Assembly: GCA_030611385.1 (NCBI GenBank)
Contig: JAUWPV010000003.1
Location: 18,996-82,995 of the forward strand
Direction: 5' to 3'
Length of the DNA stretch: 64,000 nucleotides
Source of the DNA: Bacillota bacterium
Lineage (GTDB): Bacteria > Bacillota > Dethiobacteria > DTU022
In this document: positions 37,460 through 44,262 of the stretch, piece by piece
How positions within the stretch are numbered: position 1 is the stretch's first letter
Layout: every line of letters begins with the position of its first letter
Program-made: the position numbers and the translations under genes
The notes under the pieces: generated by a model
Told to the model about the DNA's origin: nothing
What the model saw: only the letters and a program-made list of their open reading frames with translations
The model's database searches: none

Positions 37460-38848
37460 ATGACTGAGGGAAAAATATCTTCCCTGACGGCGAACAGGGA
37501 CAGCAAACTATTACTGCAGACGATTATAGATTCCCTGTCAGATGCAGTTTCGGTAGTTGATGAGAAGGGGATCGGCATTATGATCAACCGTGCCTATACC
37601 CGAATTACCGGAATGTCGGAAGAACAGGTTTTAAAAAAGCCTGCTACCGTAGATATCGCTGAAGGTGAAAGCGTTCACTTAAGAGTATTACAGACCGGTA
37701 AGCCGATCAAGGGCGTACGCATGAAGGTCGGCCCATTCAGACGGGAGGTAATTGTCAGCTGTGCGCCGTTGATTATTAACGGAGAACTTAAAGGCAGTGT
37801 GGGTGTAATACACGACATATCTGAATTACGCCGGGTGATGGAAGAACTTGAACGGACCCGCCGTTTGATCAGAAAGCTTGAAACGCGCTATACGTTTGAT
37901 GATATTATCGGCAGCAGTGATCAGATTCGGGATACAATTGAGAGAGCTGTGCAGGCCGCTGCCACTCCGGTTTGCGTCCTGCTGCGTGGAGAATGCGGCA
38001 CGGGAAAGGAACTGTTTGCGCATGCCATTCATCATGTCAGTGAAAGGGCGGAAAAGCCGTTGATCAGAGTTAACTGCGCCTCACTGACCGATACCCTTTT
38101 AGAAAGCGAGCTGTTCGGATATTCTGACGGCGCTTTTACCGGTGCGAAAAAGGGCGGACGTAAAGGATATTTCGAAGAGGCTTCCGGCGGGACACTTTTT
38201 CTTGACGAAATTGGAGCGATGAGCCTTGAAGCTCAGTCCCGGCTGCTACGGGCAATCCAGGAAGGTGAAATAATCAGGGTTGGTGAATCGCGCACCCGCA
38301 GGATTGACGTCAGGGTTATCGCCGCAACCAATGCTGATCTGGAGAAAATGGTCGAAAAAGAACTGTTCCGCAAAGATCTCTATTATCGCCTTAACGTTTT
38401 TCCGATTGAGATGCCCCCGCTGCGAGAGATTAAAAGTGATATTCCTCTGCTGGTTAATCACTGCCTCTCCCGTTATGCCCAGGAATTTGGTCGTACTGTC
38501 ATTGAAACCACTCCGGCAGTCTACCGCCGCCTGAAAGAATACGATTGGCCCGGCAATGTTCGCGAATTACAGAATATAATTGCCCGGGCTTTGATTAATC
38601 TGAACCGTGAAGAGAACATTATCGACGAGAAACATCTGACGATGCCCTTTATTAATGATCCGGAACCCTGTAAGAACGACTCAGCGCCGTTTGAAGGTAC
38701 GTTAAAAGATATGCGCCACACCTGGGAAAAAGCAATTATCCGCAAAGCGATGCGGGAAAGCGAAGATAACAAGGCTGAAGCGGCCCGCCGCCTCGATATA
38801 TCGATCCGTAACCTCTACAATAAACTTCACCGATATAAACTTCTCTAA
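37460..38848 (+). CDS. Sigma-54 enhancer-binding activator (PAS-AAA+-Fis HTH; BkdR/RocR-like)
   Basis: PAS-like N-terminus, GECGTGKE, ESELFGY..GAFTGA, LFLDEIG, YDWPGNVREL and NKAEAARRLDIS. Confidence 0.93.
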   Translation: MTEGKISSLTANRDSKLLLQTIIDSLSDAVSVVDEKGIGIMINRAYTRITGMSEEQVLKKPATVDIAEGESVHLRVLQTGKPIKGVRMKVGPFRREVIVSCAPLIINGELKGSVGVIHDISELRRVMEELERTRRLIRKLETRYTFDDIIGSSDQIRDTIERAVQAAATPVCVLLRGECGTGKELFAHAIHHVSERAEKPLIRVNCASLTDTLLESELFGYSDGAFTGAKKGGRKGYFEEASGGTLFLDEIGAMSLEAQSRLLRAIQEGEIIRVGESRTRRIDVRVIAATNADLEKMVEKELFRKDLYYRLNVFPIEMPPLREIKSDIPLLVNHCLSRYAQEFGRTVIETTPAVYRRLKEYDWPGNVRELQNIIARALINLNREENIIDEKHLTMPFINDPEPCKNDSAPFEGTLKDMRHTWEKAIIRKAMRESEDNKAEAARRLDISIRNLYNKLHRYKLL

Positions 38849-38915
38849 AATGGTCCCCCGATTTTCCGATCCTGAATGAGCACCCCTGAATTATGGTTCC
38901 TCCGGTTTAAGTATT

Positions 38916-38931
38916 TGGTATGTAAATTGCT
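38916..38931 (+). promoter_or_regulatory. Sigma-54 (SigL) -24/-12 promoter
   Basis: TGGTATGTAAATTGCT fits TGGCAC-N5-TTGCW and lies directly after the activator gene. Confidence 0.82.
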
Positions 38932-38977
38932 TTATTATTTCGTGGAAAGTAATATTTAACTGCAGGGAGGAATAATT

Positions 38978-40015
38978 ATGTCTGGTTGCCTGGCCAGGAT
39001 GGCCGAGCAGGGGTTTGAAGAGTTGGTACTATTTCATGATGCCGGAACAGGATTAAAAACAGCGATTGCCATTCACAGCACTGCGCGAGGCCCGGCACTC
39101 GGCGGGACACGGATGTGGGTTTATCCGAACGAAGAAGCTGCCATTGAAGATGTAATGTGCCTGGCTCGCGGGATGAGTTACAAGTCGGCTGCAGCCGAAC
39201 TGCCGATCGGTGGAGGCAAGGGAGTGATTATCGGTGATCCCGGCCGCGATAAGAGTGAAGCATTATTCAGGGCCTATGGCCGTTTCGTTGAAAAATTAAA
39301 CGGGCGTTTTATTACGGCAGCTGACATGGGTATAGAGGAACATGATCTTGATTGTATACGCCTGGAAACAAGACATGTTATCGGCGGGTCGGCTCTCGGC
39401 AGCCCTTCCCCGCTTACGGCTTACGGAACCTTGAAAGGAATAAAGGCCTGCACTGAAGAGGTTTTTGGATCGCCGAATCTGGAAGGCCTGATTGTGACTG
39501 TTCAGGGTGTTGGCAGTGTCGGCATGGCCCTCTGTAAAAACCTGGCGGAAGAAGGGGCGCTTCTGATCGTAACAGATTTCGATCAAAAAAAAGTAAGAGA
39601 AGCAGTGGAGTGCTGGAATGCGAAAGCTGTTGCACCGGATGAAATATATGCGCAAAAATGTGACATATTTGCTCCCTGTGGGGGAGGTGGTGCGGTTAAC
39701 CTGGAAAGCCTGCCGCAATTGCAGTGCCGTATTGTTGCCGGTGCCGCTAATAATGTTTTAAAAGAAAAAGAACTCGGGGCCGCATTAAAAGAACGGGGTA
39801 TTCTCTATGCGCCTGATTACATCATCAATGCAGGCGGAATAATCTTTGTCGAGTTCAGCCGCCAGGGAGAAAAGAACCTTGAAAAAATAAAGGCAGTAAT
39901 CGACCGCATCGAGGGTCGCATGAAAGAAATATTCCGCCGTTCCCGCGAACAGAATCTGCTGCCCGAAGAGGTAGCCGATCTGATTGCCGAAGAGAAACTG
40001 AGGGAGAAAATTTGA
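38978..40015 (+). CDS. Glu/Leu/Phe/Val dehydrogenase (leucine dehydrogenase-like)
   Basis: GPALGGTRM, GMSYK, GGGKGV, PSP.TAYG, QGVGSVG, AGAANN and YAPDYIINAGG. Confidence 0.92.
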   Translation: MSGCLARMAEQGFEELVLFHDAGTGLKTAIAIHSTARGPALGGTRMWVYPNEEAAIEDVMCLARGMSYKSAAAELPIGGGKGVIIGDPGRDKSEALFRAYGRFVEKLNGRFITAADMGIEEHDLDCIRLETRHVIGGSALGSPSPLTAYGTLKGIKACTEEVFGSPNLEGLIVTVQGVGSVGMALCKNLAEEGALLIVTDFDQKKVREAVECWNAKAVAPDEIYAQKCDIFAPCGGGGAVNLESLPQLQCRIVAGAANNVLKEKELGAALKERGILYAPDYIINAGGIIFVEFSRQGEKNLEKIKAVIDRIEGRMKEIFRRSREQNLLPEEVADLIAEEKLREKI

Positions 40016-40043
40016 TTATATTTAAGATGAGCATCGGTGACCA

Positions 40044-40088
40044 TGCAAATTTTTGCATGCAAACAATTGCAAATTGCAATAATTTGCA
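40044..40088. promoter_or_regulatory. Triple TGCA-N6-TGCA palindrome, probable activator-binding enhancer
   Basis: TGCAAATTTTTGCA (40044-57), TGCAAACAATTGCA (40058-71) and TGCAATAATTTGCA (40075-88). Confidence 0.65.
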
Positions 40089-40102
40089 AGGAGGGATTAA
40101 TA

Positions 40103-40693
40103 ATGACAAATGAAATGCTTGAGTTCCGACTGCATGGGCGGGGCGGTCAGGGTATTGTGGTGGCGGCAGTTATCTTTGCCGAAGCGATGTTCCTGGAAGG
40201 TTATTACGCCAGGGCATTTTCACTGTATGGCGCTGAGCGACGCGGTGCGCCGGTAACTGCATTTATTCGGGCCAGTAAAGAACGCCTGATGCCGCGAAGT
40301 CGTATTTACCAGCCGGATTACGTGGTTGTTTTCGATTCGACACTTTCCGGTAGCACCCTGATTGCCGGTTTGAAAGAAGAAGGGACACTATTAATTAATT
40401 CCGGGGAAAACTGGAATAAAAATCTTCCCAGAGAAATATTACCGGAAAAACTCTTTAAAATAAATACTATTGACGCCCTAGAAATAGCCTGGAAACATAA
40501 ACTGACTATCGGTAGTTTCCCAATGGTTAATACGGTAATGCTCGGTGCTCTGGCCAGAATCAGTGGTCTGGCTTCCCTTGAAAACCTGATTACTTCAATC
40601 AAAAAAAAGGTTACGGTCAGAATTGATGCCAACATCAGCGCTGCTACCGAAGGTTATGAAAGCGTAAAGGAGGTGGGACAGCTTGCCACCTGA
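40103..40693 (+). CDS. 2-oxoacid:ferredoxin oxidoreductase gamma subunit
   Basis: EFRLHGRGGQG, YGAERRGAPV.AF.R and NTVMLGA. ATG 40103 follows AAGGAGG. Confidence 0.93.
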   Translation: MTNEMLEFRLHGRGGQGIVVAAVIFAEAMFLEGYYARAFSLYGAERRGAPVTAFIRASKERLMPRSRIYQPDYVVVFDSTLSGSTLIAGLKEEGTLLINSGENWNKNLPREILPEKLFKINTIDALEIAWKHKLTIGSFPMVNTVMLGALARISGLASLENLITSIKKKVTVRIDANISAATEGYESVKEVGQLAT

Positions 40694-42227
40694 GCTGACT
40701 AAAGAAACCGAATATTACCAATGTGGGACTGAACCCAGCACCGCCAATAAGACCGGTGAATGGCGCTTTCTGACCCCGGAAAAAGGCAGAAAACTCTCTC
40801 CGTGTCGTCAAAGTTGTCTACTGGAGGGAGAAATTCCACTCTGGTTGGAAGCTGTCAAGAAGGATAAGTGGAAGGAAGCCTGGCAGATTATGAGCCTCTA
40901 TAATCCTTTTCCGGCCCTGACCGGGCATGTCTGTTTTCATCCCTGCATTGAAAACTGCAACCGGGGTCAACTGGACCAGGAAATAGATATCCAGGCGATT
41001 GAAAGAGCTATCGGGGAATGGCGCCTGGCCAACTATGAACGATTGGTGAAACTGAAAGAGGCAAAAGGACGGATTGCCATAGTCGGCTCGGGTCCAGCGG
41101 GTCTCAGCTGCGCCTATTATCTTAATGAAGCCGGGTACGCAGTTACTGTTTATGAACGCTCTAAACTGATTGGGGGCATGCTTGCCCTGGGTATTCCCGA
41201 TTATCGCCTGCCGCGGAAAGTTTTACAAAAAGAATTGGCTCTGCTGCAGGAGGAAGGTATAAAATTTGTGGCTGGCTGCACCATTGGTAAGGATTTGAAA
41301 CTAACCGAGTTATATGATCAATATTTACAGGTTTTTGTAGCCACGGGCGCGTGGTTTTCCCGTAAATCGGCAATTCCCGGAGAGGAAAGCAGAGGGGTCT
41401 GGAACGCTCTTGACTTTTTAAGCATGATTAACAGCGGGCAGGTACCCGCAGCCACGGATCCGGTTGTTGTGATCGGAGGAGGAAATGCTGCCGTAGACAG
41501 TGCCCGCAGTGCGCTCCGGATGAATGGAGTTAACAATGTTACGCTGATCTATCGCCGCAGCAAGGTGGAAATGCCGGCAGATCCGCAAGAGGTTGAGGCA
41601 GCGGAACGTGAAGGAGTAGAGCTTATCTTTAATGCTCTGCCGCGGAAAATTGAAAAAAAAGGTGAAGTTATCAGGGCCGTACTGCTTGACCACTGTAAAA
41701 CAAGCCTGGAAGGGTTGACCGTCGATTGCAGCCGAGCCTTCCGGAAGAACTGTGGAACGGTAATTATGGCCATCGGACAGGAAGCCGATCTGTCCGTATT
41801 CGGGAACATGGAGAAACCGACTACGCTTTTTGCCGGAGGTGATCTGATCAGTGGTCCGGCAACAGTTCCCGAGGCAATCAGATCGGGACGACTGGCTGCC
41901 GCGGGTATCCGGGCTAAAATTGAAGGGTTGCCTGAAACTGAACCAGTCAGTGCAGAAGAGAACCCTGTGCTTTTCAGTGAATTGAACCTTAAATCGAAGA
42001 TAAATTTAGAACTGCAGCAAAGACAGGCTGATCCGTCAGCTGAAGCCGGCCGGTGTTTAGGGTGTGGATCCTGTACTTCATGTGGAATCTGCTACATATT
42101 TTGTCCTGACCTGGCGGTTGATCAGATCGATGGCCGCTATCAACTCAACCCGGACTACTGCAAAGGGTGCGGCATTTGCGTAAAAGAATGCCCATCCCAA
42201 GCGTTGATCATGAAAGGAGGCAGGTAA
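40683..42227 (+). CDS. 2-oxoacid oxidoreductase delta subunit fused with a GltD/NfnB-like FAD/NAD(P) oxidoreductase
   Basis: Delta N-motif NKTGEWR..P; Fe-S Cys (PCRQSC, HVCFHPC..NC); GSGPAG, GIPDYRLP, IGGGNAAVD..R, YRR and FAGGD; C-terminal EAGRCLGC and two CxxCxxCxxxCP (DYCKGCGICVKECP). Confidence 0.85.
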   Translation: MPPELTKETEYYQCGTEPSTANKTGEWRFLTPEKGRKLSPCRQSCLLEGEIPLWLEAVKKDKWKEAWQIMSLYNPFPALTGHVCFHPCIENCNRGQLDQEIDIQAIERAIGEWRLANYERLVKLKEAKGRIAIVGSGPAGLSCAYYLNEAGYAVTVYERSKLIGGMLALGIPDYRLPRKVLQKELALLQEEGIKFVAGCTIGKDLKLTELYDQYLQVFVATGAWFSRKSAIPGEESRGVWNALDFLSMINSGQVPAATDPVVVIGGGNAAVDSARSALRMNGVNNVTLIYRRSKVEMPADPQEVEAAEREGVELIFNALPRKIEKKGEVIRAVLLDHCKTSLEGLTVDCSRAFRKNCGTVIMAIGQEADLSVFGNMEKPTTLFAGGDLISGPATVPEAIRSGRLAAAGIRAKIEGLPETEPVSAEENPVLFSELNLKSKINLELQQRQADPSAEAGRCLGCGSCTSCGICYIFCPDLAVDQIDGRYQLNPDYCKGCGICVKECPSQALIMKGGR

Positions 42228-42229
42228 TT

Positions 42230-43372
42230 ATGCCATTTGAATTAATCAGCGGCAGCCAGGCTGTAGCAATCGCTGTTCAGCGTGTCGGAGTTGATTTGGT
42301 GGCAGCGTATCCGATTACCCCGCAAACAGCAATTGTTGAAACCTTAGCCAGTATTGATGCAAAAGGAGAACTCGGTGGTGAGTTTGTCAGCGTGGAATCT
42401 GAATATGCAGCACTGGCTTTCTGTAAGGGAGCGGCAGCAGCCGGCGCCAGGGTTTTTACGGCAACCTCTTCACACGGCCTGGCCTATATGCATGAAATGA
42501 TCCACTGGTGCAGTGGGGCCCGTTTGCCAATTGTAATGGTCAATGTGAATCGTGCAATCGGTGCACCGTGGTGTCTTGATCCGGATCAGGGCGACAGTCT
42601 GAGCCAGCGTGATACCGGCTGGCTGCAGATCTATTGTTCAAGCGCCCAGGAAGTATTTGACACGGTTCTGCAGGCCTTTGCCCTCAGTGAGGAACTGCTT
42701 TTACCCAGCATGGTCATCTATGATGGATTTTATATATCGCACACCTATGAAGCGGTAGATGTACCGGAAAAGCAGATAGTCAGACGCTTTATCGGACCGC
42801 CTGTCTTTCCGGCCCAGGTTAAACCAGGTTCATTGGGAAACCTGCACGGCCTCACAACCAGCGAAACACAATTGGGTTTGATCAGAAGACGGCATGAGGA
42901 TATGCTGAGAGCGCCGGCACTATTTGATCAAATCAATGACCGTTTTGCACAAATATTCGGACGAAGATATAAGGTGATCGATTCGGTCATCCCACCGGGT
43001 TCCAAAACGGTGATTTTAACTGTGGGCGCTACCGCCGAAACGGTCCGGTGGTGTTTGCCGAAACTAAAAGATATCGGATTGATTCAGCTGCGGATGTTCC
43101 GTCCTTTCCCGGCCGAACGACTAGGCAGTTTACTGAAGGCTCATGAAGTGGAAAGAGTTGTAGTAATTGATCGCAACTGCTCTGTGGGCATGGGTGGGAT
43201 TTTTGCCCAGGAACTGAGAGCGGCAATTTACGGAATGACCAATCCTCCGGCAGTGGACGACTTGATTTTGGCTGGTGGTGTCGATTTGACGGTAAAAATG
43301 TTAGAAAATATGCTCGACTCAAGATCAGCGGAAAGCCGGGTTGGGCAAAAGTGGGGGACTGATTTACAGTGA
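42230..43372 (+). CDS. 2-oxoacid:ferredoxin oxidoreductase alpha subunit
   Basis: AYPITPQT, VESE, ATSSHG, VNRA and FRPFP. ATG 42230 follows AAGGAGG. Confidence 0.93.
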   Translation: MPFELISGSQAVAIAVQRVGVDLVAAYPITPQTAIVETLASIDAKGELGGEFVSVESEYAALAFCKGAAAAGARVFTATSSHGLAYMHEMIHWCSGARLPIVMVNVNRAIGAPWCLDPDQGDSLSQRDTGWLQIYCSSAQEVFDTVLQAFALSEELLLPSMVIYDGFYISHTYEAVDVPEKQIVRRFIGPPVFPAQVKPGSLGNLHGLTTSETQLGLIRRRHEDMLRAPALFDQINDRFAQIFGRRYKVIDSVIPPGSKTVILTVGATAETVRWCLPKLKDIGLIQLRMFRPFPAERLGSLLKAHEVERVVVIDRNCSVGMGGIFAQELRAAIYGMTNPPAVDDLILAGGVDLTVKMLENMLDSRSAESRVGQKWGTDLQ

Positions 43373-44262
43373 AAATTGATGAACTGAACCGCGAATCGGA
43401 GATGATTTATTCGGGACACAATGCCTGTCCCGGCTGCGGCGCGGCCCTGGCAGTCCGTTACCTTACCAGGGCTCTCGGAACTAACCTGGCCGTGGTTTTA
43501 ACGGCATCCTGCTGGAGTATTATCGCCGGGATGCCCCCGTTTACAGCGTTAAAATGCCCTGTATTGCACTGTCCATTTCCCAGTGCCGGTTCGGTAGGCA
43601 GCGGGCTGAAAAGGGGCCTTAACGCTAAAGGTTTGCAAGATACGACAGTGATTGTCCTGGCCGGGGATGGCGGTACCTTTGATATTGGTTTGCAGTCATT
43701 GTCCGGTGCGGCTCAGCGCAATGAAGACTATATTTTTGTCTGCTATGACAATGAAGCTTATATGAATACAGGGATGCAGTCCAGTTCGGCCACACCATAT
43801 GGAGCTCTGACCAATACTGCCCCTTATCCGCTCTTCAAAGAGGGGCAGAAGAAAGATATTATGCAAATTATGGCAGCGCATGGTATCCCTTATGCCGCTA
43901 CGGCAACAGTTGCTTTTCCGGAAGATATGGAGGAGAAACTAAAAAAAGCCAAAGAAATCAGCGGATTTCGGTTTATCCATATTCTTTCGCCCTGTCCTCC
44001 TGGTTGGGGAACAGAGTCTTCCGACACCATTCACCTGTCAAGACTGGCTGTTGCAACGGGATTTTTCCCTCTTTATGAAGTCAGAAACGGCGTCAACTGG
44101 AAAATGACCGTTCCAACCGACGAGAAAAGGATTCCCTTGAACGATTACCTCAGTGGGCAGCGCCGCTTTAAAAAAATGGATGAACCCCGCAGGCAGATTT
44201 TGCAGAAAGAAATTGATCGAGACTGGGAAAGTTTAATGAAAAGGGTAAACAATAGTAAGTAA
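43369..44262 (+). CDS. 2-oxoacid:ferredoxin oxidoreductase beta (TPP-binding) subunit
   Basis: GHNACPGCG, GDGGTFDIG, YDNEAYMNTG.Q and SPCPPGW. Confidence 0.93.
   Translation: MKIDELNRESEMIYSGHNACPGCGAALAVRYLTRALGTNLAVVLTASCWSIIAGMPPFTALKCPVLHCPFPSAGSVGSGLKRGLNAKGLQDTTVIVLAGDGGTFDIGLQSLSGAAQRNEDYIFVCYDNEAYMNTGMQSSSATPYGALTNTAPYPLFKEGQKKDIMQIMAAHGIPYAATATVAFPEDMEEKLKKAKEISGFRFIHILSPCPPGWGTESSDTIHLSRLAVATGFFPLYEVRNGVNWKMTVPTDEKRIPLNDYLSGQRRFKKMDEPRRQILQKEIDRDWESLMKRVNNSK

Follow-up and report, generated by a model that had tools for sequence, protein, structure and literature searches.

Organisation of the locus

The window, by which we mean the entire analysed stretch of 64,000 nt from a Bacillota bacterium, carries, in this order, ligA, a gene for a 462-aa activator, a dehydrogenase gene (ldh) and, from position 40103, four oxidoreductase genes (Table 1). 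The Walker A, GAFTGA and Walker B motifs of the activator are all intact and its helix-turn-helix (HTH) domain is present; the source genome encodes one rpoN and three full sigma-54 activator domains. Genes for ptb, buk or a lipoamide-dependent dehydrogenase were not found in the window operon, which has the dehydrogenase and a ferredoxin-type oxidoreductase instead. The fusion of a GltD-like flavoprotein with a delta-type ferredoxin, encoded among the oxidoreductase genes, is kept across the window's family and may couple 2-oxoacid oxidation to NAD(P).

Table 1. Coordinates of genes and sequence elements at the locus, in window positions.
Feature	Position	Strand	Sequence	Remarks
BkdR-type sigma-54 activator, 462 aa	37460..38848	+		one PAS domain, AAA+ domain, Fis-type HTH
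Sigma-54 (−24/−12) promoter	38916..38931	+	TGGTATGTAAATTGCT	GG-N10-GC
Glu/Leu/Phe/Val-family dehydrogenase (ldh)	38978..40015	+		cluster member named leucine dehydrogenase
Candidate enhancer site 1	40044..40057	+	TGCAAATTTTTGCA	
Candidate enhancer site 2	40058..40071	+	TGCAAACAATTGCA	offset +14; degenerate in most relatives
Candidate enhancer site 3	40075..40088	+	TGCAATAATTTGCA	offset +31
Ribosome-binding site of the gamma gene	40089..40095	+	AGGAGGG	directly after site 3
2-oxoacid:acceptor oxidoreductase gamma subunit (pyruvate/2-ketoisovalerate family)	40103..40693	+		TIGR02175 above cut-off
GltD-like flavoprotein with C-terminal delta-type ferredoxin domain	40683..42227	+		family hits below curated cut-offs
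Oxidoreductase alpha subunit	42230..43372	+		
Oxidoreductase beta subunit	43369..44262	+		

As an earlier, sequence-only reading of this DNA had stated, a −24/−12 promoter lies 67 bp past the activator stop codon at 38848 and the gap between them is free of TGCA palindromes. No TGCA half-site occurs between 37951 and 38960 and hence there is no site in the gap or in the 3′ end of the activator gene, where that reading had considered that a competing upstream activating site might lie. Based on the spacing from the −12 element, transcription is predicted to start near 38942. A promoter matrix trained on the window together with related loci gave this promoter the highest score in the genome. 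A second good −24/−12 site was observed at G000:C48:137892 on the minus strand, about 4 kb upstream of, and co-oriented with, a gene for a two-component-type sigma-54 activator.

According to the sequence-only reading, RocR and BkdR bind TGCA-type inverted repeats; for BkdR, the comparison of site placement below agrees with this. Three exact and tandem TGCA-N6-TGCA palindromes are present between the dehydrogenase and gamma genes, and this gap has no second −24/−12 site, so that the earlier description of it was accurate on both counts. It likewise lacks a sigma-70-like promoter in the sense orientation, and no sense terminator-like site was found in the gap or anywhere across 38700–40300. 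The three sites form a fixed 45-bp unit with offsets of 0, +14 and +31, in which site 3 is about three helical turns from site 1; the middle site is perfect in the window and reads xGCA-N6-TxCA in most relatives. The number of TGCA-N6-TGCA matches in the window is unremarkable (four, a number reached by 6 of 100 shuffles), and the genome total is 20 sites compared with about 23 expected. Their clustering is remarkable: genome-wide, these three are the only such sites ≤80 bp from one another. A genome-wide scan, as the sequence-only reading had proposed, thus confirmed that the cluster is unique, but it returned no second block elsewhere and so no wider regulon, the next best non-overlapping block scoring −11.6 compared with 70.9 here. 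A lone TGCA-N6-TGCA site on contig C48, 281 bp after another −24/−12 site, falls within coding sequence and is probably due to chance.

Conservation of the block in the family

We searched 115 genomes of the order for the activator and obtained 50 matches, 44 of them in the window's family (window counted); 46 regions were retrieved from the order, 40 of them from the family. The full block was present in 38 family loci, again counting the window, and of the family loci without it, two are truncated at the end of a contig (L043, L068) and one has its sites spaced differently (L063). Over the 38 loci, the TGCA positions of the block are 87–100% conserved, compared with about 30–55% for the flanks. 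Within the middle site, the first letter and the G of the second half vary. Because 29 of the scored loci, the window among them, were used to train the block matrix, block scores are not independent of these loci. Searched as a pattern with up to two mismatches, the block was found in 47 of the 115 genomes, with one copy in each, and a reversed control gave 0. Of the 44 family genomes with the activator, 43 had the pattern, as did 4 of 29 without an activator match; in the three of these four that were retrieved, the contig ends at or inside the activator gene.

In all full-block loci, the block is downstream of the first −24/−12 site, at a distance of 1108–1321 bp where the dehydrogenase gene lies between them and of 86–275 bp in nine loci that have no dehydrogenase gene; in L177, the block is 51 bp downstream of the promoter. 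Two loci from a sister family of the same class (L077, L078) carry the sites in the leader of the dehydrogenase gene, about 100 bp past the promoter. Together with the window's family and L069, this sister family falls on one side of a branch with a support of 100 in a quick, midpoint-rooted tree of 104 activator proteins, from which three short or cut rows were omitted. A matching −24/−12 promoter was found in 41 of the 41 loci of this clade with enough sequence. In L069 itself (G052), the 5 kb that follow the clade activator contain neither promoter nor block nor catabolic genes.

The distance between activator and promoter varies from 4 to 1860 bp, and whole-gene insertions occur. By eye, the inserted sequence resembles a transposase frame in L041 and an iron-alcohol-dehydrogenase gene in L042. 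The dehydrogenase-less state requires at least three changes on the activator tree. Remnants of the gene in the nine loci without it amount to marginal BLAST hits, so that the sequence does not settle between gene loss and a gene that was never present. Short dehydrogenase remnants between promoter and block were seen by eye in L060 and L180, in the latter with the 5′ start apparently joined to the 3′ end. A different oxidoreductase set replaces the pyruvate/ketoisovalerate-type genes in L049, L051, L052, L053 and L070, where the promoter and block stay in place.

Placement of the sites in other Bacillota

Conservation of the motif position in relatives was among the checks that the sequence-only reading had listed. 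A phylum-wide search of 401 genomes gave 104 with an activator match, from which we picked 60 regions across families, and placement was compared using one relaxed site definition for both groups. Only 1 of 41 clade loci had a site in the 300 bp before the promoter, compared with 50 of 55 other BkdR loci (two or more sites in 42 of the 55), against a background of 4.7% of random 300-bp windows containing a site. These counts leave out ten of 65 rows in which no promoter was found within 450 bp, among them the cut family locus L043. Conversely, downstream sites were present in 41 of 41 clade loci (38 full blocks, the altered spacing of L063 and the leader sites of L077 and L078), although most of these descend from one event and are not 41 independent tests, and a site within 200 bp after the dehydrogenase gene was found in 1 of 40 non-clade loci. 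The region of the HTH recognition helix is alike in clade and other BkdR loci. We infer that the upstream placement is ancestral; with a midpoint root only, this rests on its breadth across many families. In the outgroup loci L115 and L116, the promoter is present with no site upstream and none within 300 bp downstream, so some members of the activator family may work without one.

A scan blind to the activator, using the exact block pattern over 185,579 species genomes, gave 33 loci, among them 16 labelled as Syntrophomonadaceae MAGs and 11 as Bacillota/Firmicutes MAGs. The activator was found within 2.6 kb in 30 of the 33, and a promoter upstream of the block in 28. This set overlaps the family genomes and is therefore not independent for the family. 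In two of its loci (L144, L146), the identical 0/+14/+31 block follows immediately on the activator gene and precedes the promoter by 122 and 144 bp, which places it outside the target transcript. The block pattern is thus seldom found away from the activator, and the same spacing also serves the upstream position.

Two further loci from these searches, labelled as Thermosipho and Pseudothermotoga MAGs (L143, L166), have the exact three-site block ahead of genes that by eye resemble an aminotransferase and a butyrate kinase gene, and their 2.6-kb flanks hold no BkdR-type activator; in L166, a partial −24/−12-like sequence follows the block. They possibly represent a related Thermotogae regulon with a distant activator. 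Upstream TGCA clusters were also seen in five loci from another family of the same order (L071–L075), whose activators form a separate branch and precede, by eye, a 574-aa acetyl-CoA synthetase-like gene and not a bkd operon.

Losses, a duplication and a second origin

Four near-complete genomes (95–98% complete; L170–L173, two of which share a genus) keep the gamma gene after ligA without an intact activator at this locus, and all four lack both block and promoter; one of them has a broken activator gene and a remnant of site 3. A fifth, less complete genome (L174, 75%) has a partly decayed block with masked bases.

Six loci of genus g4 (L045, L046, L048, L050, L175 and L181, the last from the genome of L039) have the order promoter–ldh–block–promoter–ldh. 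Here, the block is 100–254 bp upstream of the second promoter, and none of the six has a block before the gamma gene. The five duplication loci included in the tree form one branch and hence probably reflect one event. This duplication shows that the block is dispensable at the gamma gene and able to occupy an ordinary enhancer position. The two ldh copies have diverged and may act on different substrates; in L175, they are about 70% and 63% identical to the window's protein.

A comparable arrangement was found outside the clade in L096 (G323), where the region 280–953 bp past the activator stop codon holds a promoter, a 193-aa gene, three sites and a ptb-like gene. The three TGCA-N6-TGCA sites overlap and lie 640 bp downstream of the promoter; L096 has no upstream site and no second promoter, and its neighbours have upstream sites. 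Grouping of L096 with the downstream clade was rejected (p-AU 0.0005; tree of 39 of the 104 proteins), for a group that was named after the first tree had been viewed. On this phylogeny, the block of L096 appears to have moved downstream independently and to be a second origin.

A probable downstream enhancer and its alternatives

Four comparative lines support the proposal of the sequence-only reading that the activator uses these repeats as a downstream enhancer: the reciprocal placement of sites (41 of 41 clade loci versus 50 of 55 others), the joint loss of activator and block in four of four genomes, the absence of an alternative promoter or upstream site, and the duplication loci with one block between two promoters. 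Judged from these comparisons, the block is very probably a downstream enhancer of the adjacent BkdR-type activator inside the activator's own operon, to which the protein would bind and from which it would loop back.

Bound protein could instead set the dehydrogenase:oxidoreductase ratio as a roadblock or attenuator, or the block could titrate the activator, with activation occurring from solution or from weak nearby sites. The block does lie in the path of the polymerase with no terminator-like site ahead of it, and in 28 of 38 loci it directly adjoins the gamma ribosome-binding site, as judged by an SD-like sequence ≤12 nt from the block end; this closeness may simply reflect a compact gap. 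However, the block is kept in the nine loci without a dehydrogenase gene to uncouple from gamma, in L178 despite a distance of 260 bp to gamma, and in L049, L051 and L052 ahead of other oxidoreductase genes; in L144 and L146, the same block precedes the promoter. The earlier suggestion that bound protein tunes the oxidoreductase genes is further weakened by the missing block before gamma in all six duplication loci, and we consider this explanation unlikely. The repeats might also serve another regulator at a separate promoter, an objection that the sequence-only reading had itself raised; an example would be CodY at an unrecognised promoter of the oxidoreductase genes. CodY-family proteins are encoded in the genome, and one antisense sigma-70-like match adjoins the block in the window. 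Against this, sense sigma-70-like sites near the block were found in 0 of 38 loci and antisense ones in 7 of 38 at scattered positions, no second sigma-54 promoter by the block is conserved on either strand, and no sigma-54 site scoring >8 was detected within 700 bp downstream in the 33 single-promoter loci. The best CodY box match in or near the block, using a 15-bp consensus, has 4–7 mismatches in 37 of 38 loci (five in the window), and the block vanishes with the activator while gamma remains. With no conserved promoter and an unmatched CodY box, a second regulator is very unlikely.

At the RNA level, the palindromes could form hairpins, or a site for an RNA-binding protein, that control gamma translation, as a 4-pair hairpin is possible at each site and site 3 touches the ribosome-binding site. 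Yet the consensus fold is weak (−6.08 kcal/mol) and shows no covariation, in an alignment that was selected by pattern and is therefore invariant there by construction. Furthermore, the fixed helical spacing and the untranscribed upstream copies in L144 and L146 point to DNA recognition, and the duplication loci have no such element before gamma, making RNA control highly improbable. Finally, a common 4-mer could have clustered by chance in an AT-rich gap, and TGCA-N6-TGCA is indeed not enriched genome-wide (20 sites versus 19–44 at other spacings). This explanation is already refuted by conservation, given the contrast between the key positions and their flanks in 38 loci and the single copies in 47 of 115 genomes against none for the control, and its probability is negligible.

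Comparison with known systems

A passage of PMC4941409 reports that B. subtilis rocG (RocR, SigL) depends on a RocR site 1.5 kb downstream, which provides the precedent for downstream activation that the sequence-only reading had cited. As far as that account goes, the two systems share a sigma-54 promoter, one amino-acid dehydrogenase gene and an activator site 1–1.5 kb downstream. In both, the element lies past the first coding sequence, and there is no site upstream of the window promoter. They differ in that the rocG element additionally serves the rocABC promoter from upstream, whereas no second promoter was found in the window or the 32 other single-promoter loci, so that the block has a downstream role only. 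A second promoter occurs only in the six duplication loci of genus g4, which recreate the rocG–rocA layout with one element between two promoters. Moreover, rocG is described in part of PMC10404663 as monocistronic, while the window block has no preceding terminator-like site and is followed by four more genes.

The locus also resembles the Bacillus bkd operon with BkdR in having a related activator directly before a sigma-54 promoter, a leucine-type dehydrogenase and genes for 2-oxoacid oxidation. We used L134 for comparison, where the operon contains ptb, dehydrogenase, buk, lipoamide dehydrogenase and E1-alpha genes and where the activator is 49–50% identical to that of the window (the only match at E ≤1e-125 among at most four candidates scored in that genome). 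The L134 promoter is equal to the BkdR-dependent promoter of B. thuringiensis printed in a portion of PMC4428206, which ties the activator family to BkdR. Unlike the window, L134 and most other Bacillota have their TGCA sites between activator and promoter. The window activator, with 462 aa and one PAS domain, is ∼230 aa shorter than the open frame of about 690 aa in L134, and the window operon has a ferredoxin-type oxidoreductase without ptb or buk. On this comparative basis, clusters of TGCA-N6-TGCA would be the BkdR motif across Bacillota.

Downstream sites of the FleQ type are close to the promoter, and the loci described here with a block 51–275 bp downstream resemble them; the usual state in the window's family differs by a whole gene between promoter and block. 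For these systems, part of a preprint (bioRxiv 10.1101/2021.08.29.457346) describes putative activator sites up- or downstream of the sigma-54 motif. With its three tandem sites, NorR of E. coli norVW, for which the abstract of PMC2831303 states that all three are needed for hexamer activity, offers a model for the three-site block, although the NorR sites lie upstream and have another sequence and spacing. In Clostridiales, most predicted sites are 100–250 bp upstream according to section 6 of PMC6615313.

Downstream enhancers are thus already known as a kind (rocG; FleQ-type sites). What differs here is a downstream-only element inside a multi-gene operon that is fixed across a family. We found no report of a downstream BkdR site or of sigma-54 regulation in this family in a survey of the open literature, and a published BkdR site sequence may exist in the primary literature. 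In that survey, rocG was the cited natural far-downstream enhancer and such cases were rare. As described in the methods of PMC6615313, regulon pipelines scan from −400 to +50 of the start codon; such scans would assign the block to the gamma gene and leave the actual promoter without a site, and cases of this kind may therefore be under-counted.

Proposed mechanism and implications

The BkdR/bkd regulon is induced by isoleucine and valine. By analogy, the signal here would be a branched-chain amino acid or its keto acid. The adjacent activator would bind the three palindromes, where three dimers loaded on three sites could assemble the active hexamer as in the NorR model, and would loop ∼1.1 kb back to open the closed complex at the promoter, the loop being formed by the DNA that carries the dehydrogenase gene. 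Transcription of the oxidoreductase genes from this promoter would require RNA polymerase to pass through the enhancer, since no sense terminator-like site lies across 38700–40300. A tentative and rather doubtful extension is that a polymerase on its way to these genes evicts the activator that launched it, a distance-timed negative feedback by an enhancer that is fixed in the family and moved downstream at least twice. If this feedback reading were true, initiation events would be spaced out.

The comparison provides a BkdR motif for Bacillota, namely clusters of TGCA-N6-TGCA, and the locus offers natural controls in the form of upstream relatives, losses, a duplication and an apparent second origin. 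The natural loci also span putative loop lengths between about 50 bp and 1.3 kb, and the arrangement makes transcription through an operon's own enhancer a testable question.
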